From the IMG/VR virus record IMGVR_UViG_2563366942_000017, positions 1 through 40,985 of that record: a DNA stretch of 40,985 nt; one strand, given 5' to 3'. The translations under genes were made by a program, and so were the position numbers. The stretch comes from a virus (Duplodnaviria > Heunggongvirae > Uroviricota > Caudoviricetes). The notes beneath the pieces were generated by a model that searched no databases, was not told the origin of the DNA, and saw only the letters and a program-made list of their open reading frames with translations. Positions 3,338 to 39,731 of the stretch are shown piece after piece. Numbering within the stretch: the stretch's first letter is position 1; every line of letters begins with the position of its first letter.

Positions 3338-6187
3338 TTACTTATTTTTTTCCATTGGTTCAGCCTTATTGAGTTGTTCCTTAAGCTTATTCCATGCTGA
3401 ATCCTCAGGCATCTGTACTCGCACAGAAACGAACTGATTAGCAGGAATGTCGATCGGGTCACCGTTCGAAACACCAGGGATGTCGTTACGTGCAAAAACT
3501 GGCGAGTTATCATGAGTGCGGTGAAACGTTTTCACCAACACAGAGCCATCTTGGTTAACAACATAATCCAGCCAGATGAGCGGCTGCTTGTTTCGGTCCT
3601 GCGGTATTTCAAATCCACCATCAATCCCCCCCCATGAAGCATCTGCATTCAGACCTACGCAACCCTCAATCAGATATTCCCCCAATGCCAGCCGTGTGAC
3701 GGTTACCCCATCTGATTCGCGATTTGTTTCACTACTACCGTCTGAGAAAATCTTCACAACCGGAGAGGCTTTTTTGATGAAACCACTTGAATCGACGGTC
3801 GTGTTCAGCGACGACCATGCCTCAGCCCAGCCTGTGTTACCTGCGCGAATAGCATCGTCTGCGTAGCGGAAGAACAGTTTTGATGTTGTGGACATGAATA
3901 TCTGCAACACACGGTTTTTTGCATATCCTGACTCCCATAATGCTCCGTTACCTGTTCCTTCTGGCTGCCAGTTTGTCACCCCACCTGCAGCTCCTACACT
4001 TACACCAGTAGACCAGTCTCCAGCAAATTCTGGAAGATTTAGTGAGTTAGGTGAGCGAATTGATACATCAACCAGACCAGGGGATCCGAGAATCGACATG
4101 CTGCGGGAGGACACCTTAGTAAAAGAGTTGTACCCGCCGTTTTTGGAAATCCTTCCTGTATAATTATTAGCCCTGTTAGTTCCATTAACTGTAATTTCCC
4201 AGGTATCGCCGTTGATGAAGTCGATCTGCAATAGGCAGAATGCTGGCAGCGTCATCTGTCCTGGCGCAGATGGCCCACCTTCAAACAGTGGCATATCCTG
4301 TTCAAGATATGTCACATATCTACCTGCATCTGTATTCCGCAAATAGTCACAAATAGCCTGTGCCGATGTAAATAGCGCAATACCATCAGCCGGGTTTACA
4401 GGGTGACGGCCAGCGTTAATCACCCTTCCGCGAGGGTTAAATAACTGTGATGAGGCATTGGATAGCGGAGTCATGTCTACTGTTCCAGGTTCATTAGATG
4501 GACAGTTAGCGCGAATGATGTTTAAAGTCCTATAATTTGATCCGCCCCCATTGTCATAGCGAATAGACTGTAGAAGATACAATTCCTCAGAGCCAGAAAT
4601 ATCACAAGACTGCACCCCCTCATTTTCAGTGGAGTAAACACTCTTCCCTGAATAACTATCCCAGTATGTTTTGAAATCTGCAGGTGACAGCAGGTACTGA
4701 CCTAATTCTGAACCATTAAGGCTGTACTCAATATAACCCTGCAACCCTGCGAAAGTATTTCCAGATCCCGCCGTGGTAGATGCACCAATACCAGCAAATA
4801 TCCGTTGAGAACCAAGAGCGACACCCTGCCGTTTTGGTTTACCGGCTCCGCGACCTCCAACATTTGCATCAACCGTAATAGTCCCCATTGGACTGTAAGA
4901 TCCTTCTATAAGGCTGTTAATATCCAGTGTGTTAAAGATATTGGATACACCTGTCTCAACATCAAAAATTTTCGGCCAACCCATATCCGCATTTTCGTAT
5001 ATCAGGGTATTACCAAAGCCACTAAACTGATATCGCACTCCAAGGCGTGTTGATTCAGTGAAGTTTGTAATCTGCGTTTTATCAACCAGCGTACGCGGAT
5101 CTTCGATAGGGTAAATTCTGATAGTGCGAGATGGGCTGTACGGCAGCAGGATGTAACGCTGTCCTGCCACTCGGTAAACGTGGATGCCTTCTGGTGCACC
5201 AACGTTATTCGGAAAATGAAGACGTGTTACCAATGCTCCTGTTACCCAGTCATGCACCGTAACCCATACCGATGCGGGGTCTAGCGTCTGCCAGCCGATG
5301 TATACCATTCCATCATTGCTGTCTATGTAAATCCCCTGAAATCCCATGGTCGTGTAACCATACTGATCTTTAAGATCTGCGGTAATCTCATCGTCTATGA
5401 TGCTGAATTCTAATTTCCAGTTCAGCGGCCTACGCGTACCACTGACATGCCTGGAAATATGAGACAGGTAGCTTTTTTTCCCTCCGGCCAAAATGTAACG
5501 CGAGGTTATTTCTGTCACTATGCCGACTGCAGCAGGAGTAACACGATAAACAGCCCCATTAATCCTGACAAAGTTTGAAATGGTTTTTATCTCATACCCG
5601 ACAGACATGTCCAAGCGAGAGCTGTCATATTTGCCATTAGCGAGATCTGTAACATACATTGCGTTGTCGATGTTATCAGGCCTAACTACCCCACTATATA
5701 AGTCTTGCACATATTTTTTTGTTACAGCATCCTGAGAGTTCTTCGGATCGGCCAAATTGGAAATTCTGTTTTGCTTTGCATCGTAATATTTTGCAAGCAA
5801 AGATGGTTTCATCAATGCACGTCTGAACCACCCAAAACATCGCTGGATCAGCATCGTCAGGTAGTCAAATGCATCTTCATGAACTTCGGGGAAAAATTTT
5901 CCCTGATTGCGAAGATCAGTCTCCTGCACCACATCAAGCACACGCTCTATCGTGATTCGCCAGCCAGCAGCAAGCGGCGACGGAAGAACCACTGCACCGC
6001 CACTATAAGTTCCCGCCCCTGTTACTGTATAACCAGCATCCAGCACTAGTTCTGTTACGTTACCGTTAAGGTCAGACACCTGAACAACCAGGTCGGATTT
6101 TTTGAAAATACGGAAGGTATACGGAAATGATGTCGTAACGCCGTTACCTGTGTATTCGTTGTGGTCAACTTCGGTTGAGACCGTCAT
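3338..6187 (-). CDS. Tailspike / tail fibre protein with T7-gp17-like N-terminal adaptor domain
   Basis: N-terminus MTVSTEVDHNEYTGNGVTTSFPYTFRIF matches the conserved podovirus tail-fibre N-terminal domain; 949 aa Gly/Ser/Thr/Asn-rich beta-structure-like body consistent with receptor-binding or depolymerase domain. Confidence 0.75.
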   Translation of the reverse strand: MTVSTEVDHNEYTGNGVTTSFPYTFRIFKKSDLVVQVSDLNGNVTELVLDAGYTVTGAGTYSGGAVVLPSPLAAGWRITIERVLDVVQETDLRNQGKFFPEVHEDAFDYLTMLIQRCFGWFRRALMKPSLLAKYYDAKQNRISNLADPKNSQDAVTKKYVQDLYSGVVRPDNIDNAMYVTDLANGKYDSSRLDMSVGYEIKTISNFVRINGAVYRVTPAAVGIVTEITSRYILAGGKKSYLSHISRHVSGTRRPLNWKLEFSIIDDEITADLKDQYGYTTMGFQGIYIDSNDGMVYIGWQTLDPASVWVTVHDWVTGALVTRLHFPNNVGAPEGIHVYRVAGQRYILLPYSPSRTIRIYPIEDPRTLVDKTQITNFTESTRLGVRYQFSGFGNTLIYENADMGWPKIFDVETGVSNIFNTLDINSLIEGSYSPMGTITVDANVGGRGAGKPKRQGVALGSQRIFAGIGASTTAGSGNTFAGLQGYIEYSLNGSELGQYLLSPADFKTYWDSYSGKSVYSTENEGVQSCDISGSEELYLLQSIRYDNGGGSNYRTLNIIRANCPSNEPGTVDMTPLSNASSQLFNPRGRVINAGRHPVNPADGIALFTSAQAICDYLRNTDAGRYVTYLEQDMPLFEGGPSAPGQMTLPAFCLLQIDFINGDTWEITVNGTNRANNYTGRISKNGGYNSFTKVSSRSMSILGSPGLVDVSIRSPNSLNLPEFAGDWSTGVSVGAAGGVTNWQPEGTGNGALWESGYAKNRVLQIFMSTTSKLFFRYADDAIRAGNTGWAEAWSSLNTTVDSSGFIKKASPVVKIFSDGSSETNRESDGVTVTRLALGEYLIEGCVGLNADASWGGIDGGFEIPQDRNKQPLIWLDYVVNQDGSVLVKTFHRTHDNSPVFARNDIPGVSNGDPIDIPANQFVSVRVQMPEDSAWNKLKEQLNKAEPMEKNK

Positions 6188-6272
6188 GTTAAATCTCCAG
6201 ATAGTCGCAGCACCCGTTGCGCCGCATATCTGGTTATTCTATTACCTGAAAAACCACATATGGATAGAAAGA

Positions 6273-6288
6273 CTGTGAATATGAACAG
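6273..6288. promoter_or_regulatory. LexA (SOS) box 1, CTGT-N8-ACAG
   Basis: CTGTgaatatgaACAG matches SOS-box core CTGT-N8-ACAG with AT-rich spacer; lies in promoter region upstream of gene 6383. Confidence 0.55.
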
Positions 6289-6291
6289 ATA

Positions 6292-6306
6292 TTACCTTTC
6301 GGGTAA
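6292..6306. promoter_or_regulatory. Operator palindrome TTACC-N5-GGTAA (site A1)
   Basis: ATTACCtttcgGGTAAT, perfect 17-bp palindrome, member of recurring family. Confidence 0.6.
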
Positions 6307-6345
6307 TTTGCAAAACGTGCTGGATAGCAAACAAATTATTTGATA

Positions 6346-6361
6346 CTGTATATTTATACAG
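6346..6361. promoter_or_regulatory. LexA (SOS) box 2, CTGT-N8-ACAG
   Basis: aCTGTatatttatACAGtt, near-consensus SOS box about 20 nt upstream of the SD of gene 6383. Confidence 0.65.
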
Positions 6362-6382
6362 TTATTGCATGGAGAAGATAAG

Positions 6383-6640
6383 ATGCAGCAGTATCACTAT
6401 CCACTGGAAGACGGATTTACCGAAAGGATTCACACGCCGGGAGGCGTCAGGTCACTGGTGGAGGGATCGCACTTGATGAAATTACTCCGGGATCTCGATA
6501 AGGATGGATTTAATGTCGATGGCCCACTTGCCGAACTGACTGCACTGATTAACTACGTCACCAGCTCACAGATGTCTATGCAGGATCTGCAAACACATCT
6601 CGACTATTGTGCCGAACAATTACGAAAGCAAACCAGATAA
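6383..6640 (+). CDS. Small antirepressor-like protein (standalone homolog of the C-terminal module of the two Ant proteins)
   Basis: SD GGAGAAG before ATG 6383; 85 aa; aligns to the last ~75 aa of ORFs 6953..7639 and 8813..9751 (shared IHxPxGV, LM.LL, DG..V.G..AELT, QTH..Y); preceded by two LexA boxes. Confidence 0.5.
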   Translation: MQQYHYPLEDGFTERIHTPGGVRSLVEGSHLMKLLRDLDKDGFNVDGPLAELTALINYVTSSQMSMQDLQTHLDYCAEQLRKQTR

Positions 6641-6671
6641 GGTTTGCAATTACCAAGCGGAGTGCTTATAT

Positions 6672-6686
6672 TTACCTTTGCGGTAA
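6672..6686. promoter_or_regulatory. Operator palindrome TTACC-N5-GGTAA (site A2)
   Basis: TTTACCtttgcGGTAAA between gene 6383 and the Bro-N antirepressor gene. Confidence 0.55.
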
Positions 6687-6780
6687 ATTTACATCGCACT
6701 CCTCTTGTGCCATAGTAATCGGGTACTGGCAAAATCCAGTGCCGGGATTGGCGTCCCGAGTTACTACAGAGGCACATATG

Positions 6781-6800
6781 CCGCATAAGCGGTTTTTTTA
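6781..6800 (+). terminator. Rho-independent terminator
   Basis: CCGCataaGCGG hairpin followed by TTTTTTT. Confidence 0.5.
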
Positions 6801-6952
6801 TGTGTAAAGCGCACCTATTCTATGGTGGGCTGTGTGGGGGCACCGAAAGGTGCGCCGGGTCCTTTGTAGCCGGTTACGCCAACCCTGCACAGTTCACCAC
6901 CAACCGATTGGCGTCGGTAGTGGTGATTAACCTAACTACAAAGGTGATCACT

Positions 6953-7639
6953 ATGACTGCTAACGTAACCCCATCTGTTTTTCATTTTGAATCAGAAGCA
7001 ACCATTCGAGCCATTGTTATTGATGGAAATCCTTGGTTTGTTGCCAAAGACGTTATTAAAGCTCTTCAACTGACAAACCCCACTATGTCAATAAAATCTC
7101 TTGATGATGATGAAAGGGCTAAATTTAACTTAGGCCGTCAAGGTGAAACCAATATTATCAACGAGTCAGGCCTCTACACACTGATCCTCCGCTGCCGCGA
7201 CGCAGTGACACCAGGCACTATCCCCTACCGCTTTCGTAAATGGGTTACAGGTGAGGTTCTTCCTCAGATCCGCCGCACCGGAAGTTACATAAAAAACTCG
7301 CTCCCGCAAGAAGAACGCATAAAGATGGTTGCCGACCAGGTAGCCAACGCCACGGCGTCAGCAGTAATGCAGGCGATGAAGATAGAGAACAAAACCTACA
7401 GTGCCCCACTGAAGCCCGGCTACCGTAGCCTGATTCATTCTCCGTCTGGTGTTCTCGGCCTGACGGAAAACTCACTGCTGATGAATCTGCTGAACCAGTT
7501 ACAGGAAGACGGGCACGACGTATCGGGCGCGGCGGCGGAGCTGACCACCATGTTCTGCTACATCGTCGGTGTGAGCAAATGCCTGCGTGATATCCAGACC
7601 CACGCGGAGTACATCAACGACAAGGCAGGGTTCTTCTGA
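6953..7639 (+). CDS. Antirepressor with Bro-N-like N-terminal domain
   Basis: SD AAGGTGA before ATG 6953; N-terminal IDGNPWFVAKDV motif typical of Bro-N/Ant N-terminal domain; C-terminal 77 aa identical to that of ORF 8813..9751; upstream ORF extension is treated as 5' leader. Confidence 0.65.
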   Translation: MTANVTPSVFHFESEATIRAIVIDGNPWFVAKDVIKALQLTNPTMSIKSLDDDERAKFNLGRQGETNIINESGLYTLILRCRDAVTPGTIPYRFRKWVTGEVLPQIRRTGSYIKNSLPQEERIKMVADQVANATASAVMQAMKIENKTYSAPLKPGYRSLIHSPSGVLGLTENSLLMNLLNQLQEDGHDVSGAAAELTTMFCYIVGVSKCLRDIQTHAEYINDKAGFF

Positions 7640-7665
7640 CGGCGGCGGCACAGGGACGTGCCTTT
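7395..7665. repeat. Inverted repeat arm 1 (3' end of Bro-N antirepressor gene plus ~25 bp)
   Basis: Reverse-complement match to 8787..9057; encodes identical 77-aa C-terminus; DNA differs at several synonymous positions; boundaries approximate. Confidence 0.6.
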
Positions 7666-7682
7666 AAATAATTCTGTACAGA

Positions 7683-7711
7683 TTGCAGACTGTGGGTGAA
7701 TAGCGTACTAT
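7683..7711 (+). promoter_or_regulatory. Sigma70-like promoter TTGCAG-17-TACTAT
   Basis: -35 TTGCAG, 17-nt spacer, -10 TACTAT; operator B starts at the last T of the -10. Confidence 0.45.
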
Positions 7712-7725
7712 TACCTCAAGGGTAA
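7711..7725. promoter_or_regulatory. Operator palindrome TTACC-N5-GGTAA (site B)
   Basis: TTACCtcaagGGTAA overlapping the predicted transcription start of the 7786/7940 cassette. Confidence 0.6.
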
Positions 7726-7785
7726 ACGGATTGGTTTCATTTTTATTAATCCGTGTAATGAACTTATGAGATATGAGGTAATGTC

Positions 7786-7965
7786 ATGCGAAACGAAAAA
7801 TTGCAGATGCGTAGAGCGCAAGCTGCCGCAAGACGTTCTTTCAATGGAAGCGTAGAGTACGTAAAAGTTACTATGACAAAAGATCACGCAAGTCGCGTAT
7901 CCCGCGCTTTCTTTGATTCTCGTAACAATAAGGAAAATTATGAGTTCGTCTGCGTCGCAGAATGA
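7786..7965 (+). CDS. Small basic protein (59 aa), candidate antitoxin/regulator partner
   Basis: Not in ORF track (<60 aa); ATG 7786 with SD GAGGTAA 6 nt upstream; overlaps downstream gene start by 26 nt (translational coupling). Confidence 0.35.
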   Translation: MRNEKLQMRRAQAAARRSFNGSVEYVKVTMTKDHASRVSRAFFDSRNNKENYEFVCVAE

Positions 7966-8485
7966 TAAAAATCAAATTGTCAGATATAAGGGTCGAGTAT
8001 TGCATACGCAAAATTTCTCGGCCCTTTGTGCATCTGATCTTGAGCTGAAGAAAGTATCTGATGCCTTTACCCAGTATTGGAAAACGGGATACCATCCATC
8101 TCTTGGTAAAGATGCTGCATTTGCTCGTCCGACAGAAATGCTTAAACTAAATGTCAGGCATACTCATGTCGATAACCAAGACTATATTCCAGAAGATAGT
8201 GATAAAAAACACACTGGTAAAAAATCATCTTGGGATGCATGGAAAAATATAGCGTCTGTGCAAGTAAAATGCATACCAACAAGTGATTGCTTTTTAGTTT
8301 ATTCGGTAAATCACAATCGTGATGCGCTGGTTATGTTTTTTGTTGACGCAGATGCCCACAACATAACTGAGCAAGAAGAGTTTAAAGAGGCAGCAATCAC
8401 TATCAGTTATCAATTCTTTGAGAAAACAAAAACAGAACCAATGCCTTTAGAAGAAGATCTTTTTTCTGATAAATGGAAGGAATAA
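7940..8485 (+). CDS. YafO-family toxin-like protein (candidate toxin or abortive-infection effector)
   Basis: SD AAGGA before ATG 7940; segments DAFTQYWKTGYHPSLGKDA, VRHTHVDN and CFLVYSVNHNRDALVMFFVD resemble E. coli YafO motifs (recalled from memory, no search run); AT-rich codon usage; strong terminator follows. Confidence 0.45.
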   Translation: MSSSASQNDKNQIVRYKGRVLHTQNFSALCASDLELKKVSDAFTQYWKTGYHPSLGKDAAFARPTEMLKLNVRHTHVDNQDYIPEDSDKKHTGKKSSWDAWKNIASVQVKCIPTSDCFLVYSVNHNRDALVMFFVDADAHNITEQEEFKEAAITISYQFFEKTKTEPMPLEEDLFSDKWKE

Positions 8486-8506
8486 GCCCGCGCTGCGGGC
8501 TTTTTT
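8486..8506 (+). terminator. Rho-independent terminator
   Basis: GCCCGC-GCT-GCGGGC hairpin followed by TTTTTT. Confidence 0.7.
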
Positions 8507-8578
8507 GTGGACGAAACAAAAGTCAGTGCTACACTCATTGACGCCACATCGAGGTGGCTTATAGATGGAAATTTCACA

Positions 8579-8740
8579 ATGAAAAAAGCATTTGCTGCAC
8601 TGTTCGTTTTGTTGTCTCTGGTAGCTTCAACTCAGGCCTTTGCCGGTCGTTGTCAGCACGACAGCGATACTGCCGCTGACGGCTCCCGCTGCGGTGGGCG
8701 TTCTGCGGATTCCCGCCCGGGCGGCGGTGGCATTCGTTAA
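8579..8740 (+). CDS. Small secreted peptide candidate (signal peptide plus ~30 aa Gly/Arg/Cys-containing mature part)
   Basis: MKKAFAALFVLLSLVASTQAFA looks like a Sec signal peptide with AFA cleavage site; weak SD; GC-rich. Confidence 0.3.
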   Translation: MKKAFAALFVLLSLVASTQAFAGRCQHDSDTAADGSRCGGRSADSRPGGGGIR

Positions 8741-8744
8741 AACA

Positions 8745-8763
8745 AGGCCGCGAAAGCGGCCTG
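8745..8763 (-). terminator. Hairpin terminator downstream of antirepressor gene (minus strand)
   Basis: GGCCGC-gaaa-GCGGCC hairpin; T-rich tract follows on minus strand. Confidence 0.45.
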
Positions 8764-8786
8764 TGACATGTCACGCTAGTTTCGTT

Positions 8787-9057
8787 TTGCACGTCCCTGT
8801 GCCGCCGTTCTGTCAGAAGAACCCTGCTTTGTCGTTGATGTATTCCGCGTGCGTCTGGATATCACGCAGGCATTTGCTCACACCGACGATGTAGCAGAAC
8901 ATGGTGGTCAGCTCCGCCGCCGCGCCCGATACATCGTGCCCGTCTTCCTGTAACTGGTTCAGCAGATTCATCAGCAGTGAGTTCTCCGTCAGGCCGAGAA
9001 CACCCGACGGCGAATGAATCAGACTGCGGTAGCCTGGCTTCAATGGATAACCATAAC
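8787..9057. repeat. Inverted repeat arm 2 (3' end of second antirepressor gene plus ~25 bp)
   Basis: Reverse-complement match to 7395..7665; boundaries approximate. Confidence 0.6.
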
Positions 9058-9751
9058 ATTTTGTCTGTGTTTTAATTGCCTCACGAAGCGCATCTAACAT
9101 CTTGACTGCCACTTCATCATTCTCTGATGCAGATCCAGCAGGGAGATACTCCCCTTCAAGCGGAACCCGAGCAACAAGAGACAACGCTTCGGCAAATTGA
9201 TCTTCACCAATTTCTTTGTACGAACAGCCAAAATGAGATTTCAGTGACGACCACATGGTGATCATCGCCTTAGCCTGTTTTTCTTTTGGCAGAGACTGAC
9301 CGCGACTCATGACGAGTTGTTTAATGGCTTCCTGCTGTTCAGTTGTTATTTTACCCGGCAACGCCTTTTTAGCTTTGCGTGGGTTAACCACATGGCCTTT
9401 AGTCCAGTACTCGTAGAGCACATCGTCACACTCTTCCTGATACTGGATTACCTTGTCGCGGATTTCAGGGCGGACTTTGTTAGGGCTGATGCTGTTCAAC
9501 CAAGCTGCCAATTTTCGTAAAGCCATACAAATCATGGCTTGCACCCCACCGGCAGAAGGTATGGTGATTTCCACCATACCCTTCGAGAAGCGTTGAGAAA
9601 TCTTCTTATGTTGAGATTTCCAGTCTAGCCCCATTCCCTCAACGATAGGTTTCATTGGGGTATACGGTTCGCCGTTGTGATTGACAACATAAAGCTCTGC
9701 GCCGTGGAATGGCACGTTGATAGTAGATACTGCTGTTGCTATACTCGTCAT
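8813..9751 (-). CDS. Antirepressor (Ant-like), distinct N-terminal domain, shared C-terminal module
   Basis: N-terminal NVPFHGAELYVVNHNGEPYTPMKPIVEGMGLDW resembles antirepressor N-domains; C-terminal 77 aa identical to ORF 6953..7639; sits downstream of Arc-like gene as in P22 arc-ant. Confidence 0.65.
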   Translation of the reverse strand: MTSIATAVSTINVPFHGAELYVVNHNGEPYTPMKPIVEGMGLDWKSQHKKISQRFSKGMVEITIPSAGGVQAMICMALRKLAAWLNSISPNKVRPEIRDKVIQYQEECDDVLYEYWTKGHVVNPRKAKKALPGKITTEQQEAIKQLVMSRGQSLPKEKQAKAMITMWSSLKSHFGCSYKEIGEDQFAEALSLVARVPLEGEYLPAGSASENDEVAVKMLDALREAIKTQTKCYGYPLKPGYRSLIHSPSGVLGLTENSLLMNLLNQLQEDGHDVSGAAAELTTMFCYIVGVSKCLRDIQTHAEYINDKAGFF

Positions 9752-9823
9752 GTCGTTAATTCCTATACGTAGTTTTACGATACTGAAGCCCTGACGGTCT
9801 GGCCACCGTGGGGCTTCGCTGTT

Positions 9824-9991
9824 TTATGCCACGCTATTCTTCTCACCAGTGAGTCCATACACTTTCCTCAGCTGATAGATAATCTCTGTATTGAACTTTC
9901 GGCATTCTTTTTCGCCATTTCTTTCAATAGCTAACTTCACATCGTCCGGAAAACGAACTCGTCGTTGACACATCTCTTTTGCTTTTTGCAT
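9824..9991 (-). CDS. Arc-like ribbon-helix-helix repressor
   Basis: SD AGGAG before ATG 9989-9991; 55 aa; RVRFPDDVKLAIERNGEKECRKFNTEIIYQL fits Arc/Mnt RHH pattern (beta-strand then two helices). Confidence 0.55.
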   Translation of the reverse strand: MQKAKEMCQRRVRFPDDVKLAIERNGEKECRKFNTEIIYQLRKVYGLTGEKNSVA

Positions 9992-10006
9992 TTCATATCT
10001 CCTTAG

Positions 10007-10065
10007 CCCCACCGTGGGGCAAAATAATTGTCACACCGTGCGTCATTGATGTCAAGCACACGGTG
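10007..10065. promoter_or_regulatory. immI-like operator/promoter region with CACCGTG palindromes
   Basis: GCCCCAC-C-GTGGGGC palindrome at 10007-10020, CACCGTG at 10034-10040 and its inverse CACGGTG at 10059-10065; a related GGCCACCGTGGGGC lies at 9801-9814 between arc-like and ant. Confidence 0.45.
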
Positions 10066-10111
10066 AGGCATACTTCAATCATTGCAAGTAACTCAATATT
10101 TGGTGAAGAAC

Positions 10112-10543
10112 ATGAGCAGAGAAGATCCACAACTAAGGATCAGACTTCCCGTCGAAGTAAAAGAAAAAATAGAAATTTCTGCAAAAGCCAATAAGCGATC
10201 AATGAACGCTGAAATAGTACAACGTCTTGACACCAGCTTTCTGAAAGATATTCATGAAGATGACGTAATTTCTGCTTATGAAGCAAAAATCATTGCAAAC
10301 AATGCACGACATGAAATATCAAATATTATTTTCAAAAGAACCTTTAATGAAATTAATAAGAAAATAACACTTGGACATACAAGTTTTTATATAAACCTTA
10401 ATGACCTTGAACTGGAATCACTTGCAGATAATGATTACCAGATCATCTTTGAAAAAACATTTAATAAGCTCAATGAACTAGGTTACATCATCTGTGAAAA
10501 CTCATGGGATGCAGATGGTTTTGGAATTGAAATACCTGAATAG
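10112..10543 (+). CDS. Mnt-like RHH DNA-binding protein with ~95-aa C-terminal extension
   Basis: N-terminus RIRLPVEVKEKIEISAKANKRSMNAEIVQRL matches Mnt/Arc RHH motif; divergent from arc-like gene; ORF track start is TTG, internal ATG 10112 preferred. Confidence 0.55.
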   Translation: MSREDPQLRIRLPVEVKEKIEISAKANKRSMNAEIVQRLDTSFLKDIHEDDVISAYEAKIIANNARHEISNIIFKRTFNEINKKITLGHTSFYINLNDLELESLADNDYQIIFEKTFNKLNELGYIICENSWDADGFGIEIPE

Positions 10544-10606
10544 GAAGAACAAAAGGCGTGTACATATTACACGTCTTTAATACAATTGAAAAACGCCACA
10601 TTACTG

Positions 10607-11197
10607 ATGTATGTTACAACAAGGAGCGATATTTTGAAAACCATATCTATATTAAAGGTTGCATTAGGCGTCGCTATTATTTTGACTCTCTCAATATTGT
10701 TTTATTTTTACCACAAACAAACTGCTATTGCTCTTGATAGTCACGCGGCAAACTCATTTTTCTCAGAGTACATAGTGCCGCTATCAGGAAGCGGTATAAC
10801 AAATAAATATACTGACTATGACATCAAATATGGAATTGATGATGGGGAGACTATTGTATTACATGTAATCATTAAAAACCTAATGACAGTAAATAAAAAT
10901 ACAGACTTCAACGATAAAAATACAATACATCACAACAACAGCAAAACATTAATTTCTTATAGTAGCAACATCTATACGGATAAATGCCTAAAATACATAT
11001 CAGAAGATACAATAAAAGAAACCCGCGAAAAGTTAAAAAACATATATTGTGCATCCGGCAGTTTTCACAAATTATCGCCGCAAGAGCGTTTATTCTACGA
11101 AGCAAGAAAACAACGTAAGTCAATAATATTACATTATTATGCTGATTCAGGGGAGACACTCATATTTAATATTGGGGTTTCCCCTGAATCATGCTAA
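10607..11197 (+). CDS. AT-rich membrane-anchored protein of unknown function (superinfection-exclusion/defense candidate)
   Basis: N-terminal TM helix ILKVALGVAIILTLSILFYFY; very AT-rich compared with flanking structural genes; start ambiguous (ATG 10607 or TTG 10634 with AAGGAG SD). Confidence 0.45.
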   Translation: MYVTTRSDILKTISILKVALGVAIILTLSILFYFYHKQTAIALDSHAANSFFSEYIVPLSGSGITNKYTDYDIKYGIDDGETIVLHVIIKNLMTVNKNTDFNDKNTIHHNNSKTLISYSSNIYTDKCLKYISEDTIKETREKLKNIYCASGSFHKLSPQERLFYEARKQRKSIILHYYADSGETLIFNIGVSPESC

Positions 11198-35241: not shown

Positions 35242-35826
35242 ATGAAAAGTATCCAGGACGTCCGCAGGCAAAATCTCAACGACTTGATCGACCGTGAATT
35301 CAATGGTGTTCAGACGCGGATGGCTGAAAAACTTGGAACTCAGGCAAATCTGGTAAACCGCTGGGCTCTTGGCAAGAAGGTTATCGGCGACCAGGTTGCG
35401 CGAAAAATTGAAGCTGCCGCCAATAAACCCCGTAACTGGCTTGATATCGATCGCTCGCTTTCTCAGGAAGGTTTTCAGCCTGTCGGACCAAGCGACATTG
35501 GTCAACTGGCGGCTCACAACCTGGAACGCTGGATGAGCGAAAGCCGCGACCTTTCAACGCAGGGAAAACTTCACCGCGCATCCGGCGTCGCCCAGGTAAC
35601 AATCAGCCGCCTGTTAAACAATGAGGTCAGCGTTTCCATTTCCACCCTGGAGAATGTTGCATCCGCATTTGGGCGTCACGGATATGAATTACTGATTCAC
35701 CCGCACGACCCCGCGACTATCAACTATGACCGCTCGCGCTACGCATTGTTACCTGAAACAGAGAAGGCAAAGATCGAAAGTTACATTGAATTTGTCATCA
35801 ACCAGAACGAAAAAAACAAACAATAA
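35242..35826 (+). CDS. Prophage repressor candidate (two HTH regions, no peptidase S24 domain)
   Basis: N-terminal CI-type HTH (QTRMAEKLGTQANLVNRWALGKK) and a second XRE-like HTH (LHRASGVAQVTISRLLNNE); divergent from cro-like; flanked by operator clusters; no Ser-Lys autocleavage motif. Confidence 0.55.
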   Translation: MKSIQDVRRQNLNDLIDREFNGVQTRMAEKLGTQANLVNRWALGKKVIGDQVARKIEAAANKPRNWLDIDRSLSQEGFQPVGPSDIGQLAAHNLERWMSESRDLSTQGKLHRASGVAQVTISRLLNNEVSVSISTLENVASAFGRHGYELLIHPHDPATINYDRSRYALLPETEKAKIESYIEFVINQNEKNKQ

Positions 35827-38897: not shown

Positions 38898-39540
38898 GAA
38901 ATACACACTAATCTATGCAGATCCACCCTGGGTATACCGGGACAAAGCCGCAGATGGTAATCGCGGTGCCGGTTTTAAATATCCTGTTATGAGTGTGCTG
39001 GATATCTGCCGCCTTCCTGTGTGGGATTTGGCCGATGAAAACTGTCTGTTGGCCATGTGGTGGGTGCCAACACAACCACTCGAAGCACTAAAAGTTGTTG
39101 AAGCCTGGGGATTCCGTCTGATGACGATGAAGGGCTTCACGTGGATAAAATGTGGTAGTCGACAACCAGATAAACTGGTTATGGGTATGGGACACATGAC
39201 TCGCGCCAATAGTGAAGATTGCCTGTTTGCGGTAAAGGGAAAACTACCTACGCGCATTAATGCAGGGATCGTTCAGTCATTTACCGCACCGCGGCTTGAG
39301 CATTCAAGAAAGCCAGATATCGTTCGTGAAAAACTTGTGCAATTATTAGGCGATGTTTCTCGCATTGAACTGTTCGCCCGCCAGACGTCTCATGGCTTCG
39401 ATGTTTGGGGTAATCAGTGCGAAGACCCGGCAGTGCAACTACACCCTGGATACGCGTTGGATATTGGCGGATTAACAAATGCATTCAGCAATGCTCCGCT
39501 GTCACCAACAGACATCCAGGGGCGGGAGCGTGCTGCATGA
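38890..39540 (+). CDS. MT-A70-family N6-adenine DNA methyltransferase
   Basis: Catalytic DPPW motif (YADPPWVY) near N-terminus; internal ATG 38890 with GGGGTGG SD. Confidence 0.7.
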   Translation: MTKKYTLIYADPPWVYRDKAADGNRGAGFKYPVMSVLDICRLPVWDLADENCLLAMWWVPTQPLEALKVVEAWGFRLMTMKGFTWIKCGSRQPDKLVMGMGHMTRANSEDCLFAVKGKLPTRINAGIVQSFTAPRLEHSRKPDIVREKLVQLLGDVSRIELFARQTSHGFDVWGNQCEDPAVQLHPGYALDIGGLTNAFSNAPLSPTDIQGRERAA

Positions 39541-39731
39541 ACAGGGCATCACCAGCAGATTTAAGAAAATGCCTTGAAACTGCAAACATGCTTGCACACA
39601 GCGGGATCAGGTTTGTTCCAATTCCCGCTGTCACTGATGCTGAATTTGCAACACTGTCAGCAATATTCGAAAACAAAATTGAATCACTGGCAGCAGAAGC
39701 AGAGATGGAAGAAAATCAGCAGAACTATTAA
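39537..39731 (+). CDS. Small hypothetical protein
   Basis: 64 aa from internal ATG overlapping methylase stop (ATGA). Confidence 0.35.
   Translation: MNRASPADLRKCLETANMLAHSGIRFVPIPAVTDAEFATLSAIFENKIESLAAEAEMEENQQNY

Follow-up and report, generated by a model that had tools for sequence, protein, structure and literature searches.

Why does one phage genome carry the same protein module of about 77 residues three times within positions 6383-9751, twice at the ends of genes that face each other? The question is raised by the IMG/VR virus record IMGVR_UViG_2563366942_000017, whose 40,985 nucleotides were analysed as a whole and are called the window here. The window is an epsilon15/phiV10-type (Uetakevirus) temperate E. 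coli phage with an overall G+C content of 48%. Homologies, RNA elements, RNA pairing and covariation, population statistics and gene orders were computed. The feature is best understood as a set of three antirepressor genes that share one effector module and are each subject to a different predicted control. We consider it likely that they serve a lysis-lysogeny switch, which is worked by one repressor (Rep) and by one Rep-inactivating module that is carried three times under different controls. The inverted repeat that is formed by two of the copies is a by-product of the gene arrangement.

Three copies of one module

The first of the two long antirepressor genes, named Bro-N gene below (6953-7639, plus strand), encodes 228 amino acids (aa) that comprise a Bro-N domain (residues 18-104; Pfam Bro-N, 5e-20), a linker and the module. 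The second, named ant (8813-9751, minus strand), encodes 312 aa that comprise a P22_AR_N domain (Pfam PF10547, 5.9e-45), a middle region and the module. The two copies of the module occupy positions 7406-7636 of the plus strand (copy L) and 8816-9046 of the minus strand (copy R). In the initial annotation, the C-termini of both proteins had been described as identical over 77 aa and their genes as different at synonymous positions. An exact codon-by-codon comparison bore this out. The final 77 codons before the stop (PLKPGY...KAGFF) encode the same protein, and the genes differ in 11 of these 231 nucleotides; every difference is synonymous. Immediately upstream of the shared 77 aa, the two proteins are unrelated. 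The third copy is a standalone gene of 85 aa (sAnt; 6383-6640, plus strand), which aligns to the module without gaps over 78 residues (40% identity, BLASTP E 8e-16) and is thus a diverged paralogue, as had been proposed.

A repeat search of the window detected one inverted repeat (7371-7640 / 8812-9081). Its arms of 270 nucleotides are 90% complementary and separated by 1171 nucleotides; copy L is part of the left arm, copy R of the right arm, and across the coding 231 nucleotides the arms are 95% identical. The repeat of about 270 base pairs (bp) around an AT-rich cassette of about 1.1 kb had therefore been recognized correctly. The cassette (7640-8812, plus strand, 1173 bp) has a G+C content of 43.8%, compared to the 48% of the window.

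The module and its repressor

The sAnt protein shares 88% of its residues with the ant product of Salmonella phage SPC32H (KC911856), of which it is an orthologue. Its residues 2-84 matched residues 3-85 of PDB entry 5D50, chain E ("Anti-repressor protein"), with an E-value of 4e-47, and the C-terminal module matched residues 3-79 of the same chain with an E-value of 1e-14. All three copies matched PHROG 450 (1e-35 to 9e-48), a family labelled "unknown function". In scans of the window proteins, no Pfam or NCBIfam model was found for the module. The free-standing form of about 86 aa is represented by sAnt with its 85 aa, while the two identical copies are C-terminal domains. The initial annotation had regarded the module as a probable repressor-binding effector domain. 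This view gains strength from the full-length homology to SPC32H Ant, which was crystallised together with Rep (5D50), and from a Rep-type repressor encoded by the window (35242-35826, plus strand) that matched 5D50 chain A ("Repressor") over its full length with an E-value of 4e-42. Judged by homology, the module is an SPC32H-type small antirepressor Ant, and Rep is the presumed common target of its three copies.

For the Ant/Rep pair it is reported that an Ant tetramer binds two Rep dimers and disrupts the Rep tetramer (PMC9638917), that the C-terminal domain of Rep mediates the interaction with Ant (PMC9986798), and that Ant is made once LexA is cleaved (PMC7380047). At least 80 viral contigs, among them that of phiV10, encode a Rep protein with 100% identity to that of the window, and these contigs comprise 55 DNA haplotypes of the gene.

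Predicted controls of the three genes

The standalone gene is preceded by a perfect LexA-type box of the form CTGT-N8-ACAG (CTGTATATTTATACAG, 6346-6361), which is located 37 nucleotides before its ATG. In 84 of 87 relatives, one of which is SPC32H, a box is conserved at this position. In combination with the reported synthesis of Ant after LexA cleavage (PMC7380047), its conservation supports the earlier prediction of LexA control. A second perfect box further upstream (CTGTGAATATGAACAG, 6273-6288) was seen in the window and in one relative only. Neither of the two long antirepressor genes is preceded by a perfect LexA box.

The leader of the Bro-N gene contains several RNA elements, all of which are located on the plus strand. 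An a1/b1 element (Rfam c4-a1b1, 6710-6762) provides upstream sites complementary to C4, including b1 (ATTGGCGT, 6747-6754). It overlaps an IsrK-like RNA (6723-6799; RF01394, 70.5 bits, gathering score 50), which consists of two hairpins and an intrinsic terminator; a terminator-like site was located at 6780-6793 within this RNA. A C4 antisense RNA follows (6818-6904; RF01695, 79.5 bits, gathering score 45, E 4e-16, full model 1-87) and contains the loop a' (CCTTTGTAG, 6861-6869) and the element b' (ACGCCAAC, 6876-6883). The downstream C4 target sites span positions 6907-6944 and consist of b2 (ATTGGCGT, 6907-6914) and a2 (CTACAAAGG, 6936-6944). Loop a' (CCUUUGUAG) pairs in nine of nine nucleotides with a2 (CUACAAAGG), that is, across the Shine-Dalgarno sequence that precedes the Bro-N start codon (ATG at 6953). 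In b' all eight nucleotides pair with b2 (AUUGGCGU). The interval between the end of C4 (6904) and the ATG leaves no room for an icd-type open reading frame (ORF), and none was found between c4 and the Bro-N gene. The target is therefore the Shine-Dalgarno sequence of the antirepressor gene itself. As a further observation, the folding energy of the whole leader (6705-6960) is far lower than that of shuffled sequences (-111 kcal/mol, z = -5.3).

The variability of these elements was surveyed in 79 IMG/VR loci, phage records and E. coli genomes. Each Bro-N-module or AntA-module gene carries its own IsrK/C4 leader. The leaders belong to five C4 classes, and in every class the C4 loops bear the complementary change. 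The class of the window combines the a-target CTACAAAGG with the b-target TTGGCGT and the protein N-terminus MTANVTPS. A second class shares this a-target and has the b-target TTGGTCT and the N-terminus MNTKPSIF. Two classes have the a-target CTAAGTGG; one is combined with TTGGCGT and the N-terminus MANAQTAI, the other with TTGGTCT and an AntA fusion. The class of phiV10 and ZX5 has the a-target CTAAAAGG, the b-target TTGGCGT and the N-terminus MTATKSTS. Where a locus has two or three C4-controlled genes, which is the case in 14 loci, it always combines different classes. This finding is suggestive of a non-random difference between co-resident classes but does not prove it, because about three quarters of random pairs would differ at roughly equal class frequencies and because the loci are not independent.

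The RNA genes were unannotated in every record that was inspected. For example, the C4 region of vB_EcoP_ZX5 (L175, 1779-1892) is annotated as a small coding sequence for an "ash family protein", and that of phiV10 as "similar to hypothetical protein SF0880".

The ant gene belongs to a P22-type immI unit. Opposite its leader and ribosome-binding site, a sar antisense RNA was identified on the plus strand (9753-9820; RF00262, 44.8 bits, gathering score 43). The adjacent arc-like ribbon-helix-helix gene (9824-10012, minus strand) gave weak PHROG matches to Arc-like repressors (best 1.8e-5), and the corresponding gene of TL-2011b is annotated as an Arc-like repressor. The mnt-like gene (10082-10543, plus strand) encodes 153 aa with an N-terminal Arc-type domain (Pfam Arc, 1.2e-14). 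The Ant protein of the window matches those of the P22-like phage CUS-3 and of Stx phage 2851 up to about residue 200 and diverges thereafter. Where these two proteins carry P22_AR_C (5e-29 and 1.5e-29), that of the window has a linker and the module; the Pfam scan detected no P22_AR_C (PF10548) in it. In the window, the P22_AR_C domain of a P22-type Ant has been replaced by an SPC32H-type module.

A proposed switch with one effector

Taken together, these elements suggest the following mechanism. The standalone Ant would be made from behind its LexA box when DNA damage removes LexA. The Bro-N-Ant fusion lies behind an IsrK-like leader and a C4 antisense RNA of the P1/P7 type; since the C4 loop is exactly complementary to the Shine-Dalgarno region, C4 from a resident prophage should keep the Bro-N gene untranslated. 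The P22_AR_N-Ant fusion would be controlled within the P22-type immI unit by mnt, arc and sar. The two long genes most likely have anti-immunity functions and would be expressed on entry into a cell that lacks a matching C4 or Mnt. The long antirepressors would then inactivate the resident Rep. In this scheme we infer that the fused modules bind to Rep, that C4, Mnt and sar repress, and that the long genes play a role in superinfection. The long genes converge because the two transcription units have separate origins; in this orientation, moreover, recombination between the two copies cannot cause a deletion. No convincing operator-like 10-mer emerged from a search for sequences that the rep-cro region has in common with the upstream regions of the three Ant genes.

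Identity of the two C-termini

If the Bro-N and ant genes have separate origins, why are their C-termini identical? A recent duplication, or ongoing gene conversion between the arms in the sense of concerted evolution, could produce 100% protein identity over 77 aa with a sharp boundary. Consistent with such a process, some loci that carry two Bro-N genes have arms with only 0-1 differing sites. The question was addressed by means of 117 module copies from 87 loci. These copies represent 94 DNA haplotypes with 57 variable sites, 48 of which are synonymous, and 83 of them encode exactly the protein of the window on many DNA backgrounds. For pairs of Bro-N and P22_AR_N genes, the two arms of a locus differ at 10.2 sites on average (range 6-16), and arms from different loci at 9.8. 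Because the distance within loci equals that between loci, the 11 synonymous differences in the window are typical, and gene conversion between the arms was rejected, as the distances within loci are no smaller. The equality of the two distances likewise led to the rejection of selection for extra synonymous divergence of the arms as a means of suppressing recombination. A recent duplication or continuing conversion is therefore a highly improbable source of the identity.

The identical C-termini reflect population-wide purifying selection, and not a recent duplication or gene conversion: they are identical because the module, like Rep, is nearly invariant at the protein level across the phage group. 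An invariant Rep and an invariant module fit the picture of a tightly matched pair. The standalone Ant is less constrained and occurs in 19 protein variants among 86 genes.

Distribution and target of the module

Outside the window, the module always forms the extreme C-terminus of its fusion proteins, in which it is preceded by a Bro-N, AntA, Phage_pRha or ORF6N domain; it also occurs in free-standing proteins of 86-97 aa. The family is small and has 65 representatives at 50% identity among 1.84 billion proteins. With the bare 77-aa module as a protein query, 19 short proteins and no fusions were found; the fusions were recovered via the loci and the library of representatives.

Several of these homologues occur in other genetic surroundings. 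An E. coli prophage whose Rep is that of the window (L092) encodes a free-standing module of 97 aa (6001-6294), which is of the fused type and has an identical core of 77 aa. Its gene is located between those for an MT-A70 methylase and an integrase, i.e. in the early-left operon and not beside the tailspike gene; the equivalent place of the window is occupied by an unrelated ORF (39417-39731). Three Klebsiella chromosomes (L089-L091, 8001-8288) encode a homologue of 95 aa with 65% identity to the module in a small island, where its neighbours are a HicAB pair and an AlpA-like regulator. About 1.7 kb downstream of this homologue, L089 has a tRNA gene. The island could be a satellite or a prophage remnant with an antirepressor that induces a helper phage. 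The protein P0130 is a natural chimera, whose N-terminal half resembles the standalone subtype and whose C-terminal helix resembles the fused subtype.

An experimental result exists for a close relative of the Bro-N protein. ORF4 of phage vB_EcoP_ZX5 is 82% identical to it, the C-terminal 150 aa and thus the module being completely identical. Overexpression of ORF4, which is described as an "anti-repressor", lowered the titre of the lysogen from 1e9 to 1e6 (Li et al. 2022, PMC9782041), and the ZX5 repressor is reported to have the same sequence as that of phiV10 (PMC9782041).

Do the standalone and the fused modules act on the same protein? Alternatively, the standalone Ant might act on its own Rep in the SOS response, and the fused form or its N-terminal domain on another protein, for instance a host factor or the repressor of some unrelated prophage in the same cell. 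The identity between the two subtypes is only 40%, with the greatest difference in the last helix, and the standalone form tolerates the amino acid changes noted above, which the fused module does not. Moreover, the N-terminal 200 aa of the window Ant are common to lambdoid and P22-like phages with other repressors, and antirepressor cross-talk between prophages has been documented (PMC3121763). However, the phages with an essentially invariant fused module are also those with an essentially invariant Rep, the free-standing 97-aa module of the fused subtype occurs in a prophage with an identical Rep, a natural chimera of the subtypes exists, and ORF4 of ZX5 affects the lysogeny of its own phage. 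On balance, we consider separate targets unlikely and prefer Rep as the common target of the three copies.

Several points weigh against a single switch that acts through Rep. The binding of the fused module to Rep is deduced from homology, and with its 40% identity to the standalone Ant the module might present different surfaces or bind different repressors. As the whole ORF4 protein was used in the ZX5 experiment, its Bro-N domain could be the cause of the effect. The c4-a1b1 match is slightly below the gathering score (43.4 compared to 46.7 bits), and an icd-type ORF is missing from the leader. In Gifsy-1, IsrK activates and does not repress translation of the downstream antirepressor-like gene (PMC4825925), so that the leader as a whole may act in either direction. 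Finally, an AlphaFold2 monomer model of an 86-aa module (alignment of 23 sequences, pLDDT 76.7) did not retrieve 5D50 in a Foldseek search of the PDB, the best E-value being 5.9. This last result was counted as uninformative and not as contrary, because Ant is small, helical and oligomeric; the identity of the module accordingly rests on the sequence match to chain E of 5D50.

If the assignment is correct, a structurally characterized function, the inactivation of a repressor, can be given to an unnamed C-terminal domain of "antirepressor-like" proteins of the Bro-N, P22_AR_N, AntA, Rha and ORF6N types. It suggests that in such proteins the C-terminal domain meets the repressor and the N-terminal domain is interchangeable.

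The cassette and the question of inversion

The content of the cassette varies among relatives. In the window, it contains orf59 (7786-7965), an ORF of 59 aa that overlaps the start of a YafO-like toxin ORF (7913-8485; 190 aa from a TTG start; Pfam YafO_toxin, 1.2e-5) and may encode its antitoxin. A terminator on the plus strand (8484-8502) separates this pair from a gene for a small membrane-anchored or signal-peptide protein of 53 aa (8579-8740; WP_000708858, PHROG "membrane associated protein"), which is followed by a terminator on the minus strand (8745-8762). The part with orf59 and the YafO-like ORF has a G+C content of 39% and is replaced by unrelated genes in other relatives; that of the small membrane protein has 56%. 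For the cassette genes, no significant match was obtained from PADLOC or NCBIfam. Between the conserved arms, other loci contain a YafO-like toxin gene, an ORF of 633 nucleotides, small ORFs or DUF2335. The 53-aa membrane-protein gene nearly always adjoins the right-hand arm and was used as a marker for the orientation of the cassette. In several relatives, a second YafO-like gene, encoded on the minus strand, lies in the interval from sAnt to the IsrK leader; in TL-2011b it is present as a pseudogene-like insert.

According to the initial annotation, the arms could allow inversion of this cassette. The idea can be extended to an invertible switch, in which the 270-bp arms are the working part and place the toxin and membrane-protein genes under either ant promoter. 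The near-identity of the arms across their coding 231 nucleotides would permit this, and the phage encodes RecT and a PDDEXK nuclease. No inverted cassette was found, however, among about 23 relatives with the layout of the window (13 informative phage and IMG/VR loci, and 10 collinearly matching complete E. coli genomes). A synthetic query for the inverted junction gave full matches in six of 507 genomes; those inspected were loci with two Bro-N genes, and the rest were uninspected sister isolates of one of them. A tblastn search of the window for a serine invertase, made with a Gin/Hin-type sequence, gave a chance match only (E 1.5). Apart from the invertase search, the ORFs of the region are all accounted for.

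Both orientations of the cassette were found only in loci with two C4-controlled genes. The clearest case is a pair of loci, L016 and L066, which differ by the reversal of 3,260 bp (98.4% identity); the end points are located in repeats of the C4 leaders, an outer repeat that the window lacks. In the complete genomes of CUVET21-H2 (L087) and strain 07_3636 (L004), the hyp633/TM cassette is reversed beside the same Bro-N class (98.3-98.5% identity), and the change-over point is inside the shared repeat of Bro-C-half and module. It follows from these two pairs that the arms are recombination substrates on an evolutionary scale. The flips are evolutionary rearrangements and not evidence of a switch.

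L087 and L004, with the same Bro-N class joined to the cassette in both ways, would count in favour of an invertible switch. So would a metagenomic contig with three Bro-N-module genes (L064), in which the TM gene between the arms is flipped, but it was not relied on, because such repeats can be misassembled in metagenome contigs. Besides the missing inversions and invertase and the outer repeat at the ends of the L016/L066 flip, an inversion would leave both Ant proteins unchanged. We therefore regard an invertible switch as very unlikely; in this genome, nothing points to an active one, and the proposal that the arms serve to invert the cassette found no support in that form.

In L006 (5175-5456), L087 (7880-8191) and other loci that have two C4-controlled genes, a fragment from the N-terminal part of a P22_AR_N ant gene is found directly outside the C4 leader on the right. 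Its strand is opposite to that of the intact gene in the layout of the window. The fragment looks like the scar of a rearrangement that replaced the P22-type immI unit.

Gene order among related phages

In the window, the tailspike gene (minus strand) is followed by sAnt and the Bro-N gene (both plus), the plus-strand cassette and ant (minus). Then follow the arc-like gene (minus), the mnt-like gene (plus), orf203 (plus) and the structural genes (minus). All gene coordinates match the annotation in close relatives. The region 6200-10100 shares 96% identity with Escherichia phage TL-2011b, and its left part is common to phiV10, vB_EcoP_ZX5 and other Uetakevirus (epsilon15-like) phages. In SPC32H and epsilon15, the interval from the tailspike gene to the structural genes holds the small ORF alone; phiV10 has one Bro-N gene in addition at the tailspike locus, and the window and TL-2011b have further gained the cassette and the P22-type immI unit. 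The ORF of 203 aa (10586-11197) is situated in a very AT-rich region (about 35% G+C) and matched PHROG 8033, whose function is unassigned; its sole other match was an insignificant TIR-like one from PADLOC (E 0.006). It occupies the position that sieA has in P22 immI.

Possible implications for phage immunity

The preferred reading, one Rep and one module under three controls, has a possible extension to the whole phiV10 group. Tentatively, and with less confidence than in the switch itself, one may imagine that the group has a single invariant pair of Rep and Ant module, of which only the controls diversify, and that stacked, alternately oriented Ant genes constitute a combinatorial secondary immunity. 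If so, the timing of Ant would be decided by at least five C4 classes (three "a" and two "b" variants), by P22-type Mnt/Arc/sar and by LexA. A prophage would silence only those incoming Ant genes whose control it also carries, and the escape of a single Ant gene would be enough for an incoming phage to overcome the immunity of a lysogen that is otherwise homoimmune. The inverted module arms and the repeats of the C4 leaders would then be substrates that reshuffle N-terminal domains, controls and moron cassettes.

In any case, one small phage appears to combine a single effector with three predicted controls, namely SOS, a P1-type antisense RNA and a P22-type repressor/antisense unit. The locus is therefore a concrete system for the study of secondary immunity and of conflicts between prophages that share a repressor. 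As phages of E. coli O157 and O103, e.g. phiV10 and TL-2011b, are members of the group, its induction and superinfection behaviour is also of some applied interest.

Comparison with known systems

All components of the locus are of known kinds; their combination and the use of the module as a shuffled C-terminal domain appear to be undescribed. The closest parallel is the antirepression system of SPC32H, which was reportedly described by Kim & Ryu in 2013 and by Kim et al. in 2016, with the structures 5D50 and 5D4Z. As in that phage, the standalone gene of the window sits between the tailspike gene and the structural operon, has a LexA box in front and is accompanied by a Rep of the same family in the same genome. 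SPC32H has the standalone gene alone, whereas the window has the same fold also as the C-terminal domain of two larger proteins, whose genes lack a LexA box. Furthermore, the Rep of the window is clearly homologous to that of SPC32H, yet it is far more diverged than Ant.

The right-hand part of the locus resembles P22 immI in the order and strands of the genes, in the P22_AR_N domain of Ant, in the position of sar opposite the ant leader and in its location next to the tailspike region. It differs by the exchange of P22_AR_C for an SPC32H-type module and by the length of the Mnt-like protein, since P22 Mnt is shorter than 153 aa.

The leader of the Bro-N gene corresponds to immI of P1/P7. In both cases, C4 originates from the leader of an antirepressor operon and has complementary sites upstream and downstream, the downstream one being located over a ribosome-binding site, and in both cases changes of loop and target define specificity classes. 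In P1, C4 is required for full repression of ant (PMC8198154). In contrast to the window, P1 has an icd-type ORF between c4 and ant. The antirepressor of the window is not P1 Ant but a Bro-N fusion (AntA in relatives) to an SPC32H-type module, and its phage is a podovirus with a different repressor. A similar arrangement is the IsrK/STnc1160/orf45/AnrP region of Gifsy-1, where an IsrK-type RNA with a leaky terminator and a processed small RNA precede an antirepressor-like gene (PMC4825925); the window lacks orf45. Compared to the window, ZX5 has a single long antirepressor gene of another C4 class, and its description mentions neither the C-terminal module nor the C4 RNA nor a standalone Ant (PMC9782041).

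With respect to its domain architecture, the locus belongs to a wider group of regulators, as one C-terminal domain is found on Bro-N, P22_AR_N, AntA, Phage_pRha and ORF6N domains. Domain shuffling among phage regulators of the Bro-N, KilA-N, Rha, AntA and ORF6N types is said to have been recognized by Iyer, Koonin & Aravind in 2002. The C-terminal partner considered here differs in that it has no Pfam or NCBIfam model and in that, unlike for most others, a structure has been solved and a function demonstrated for the free-standing form.

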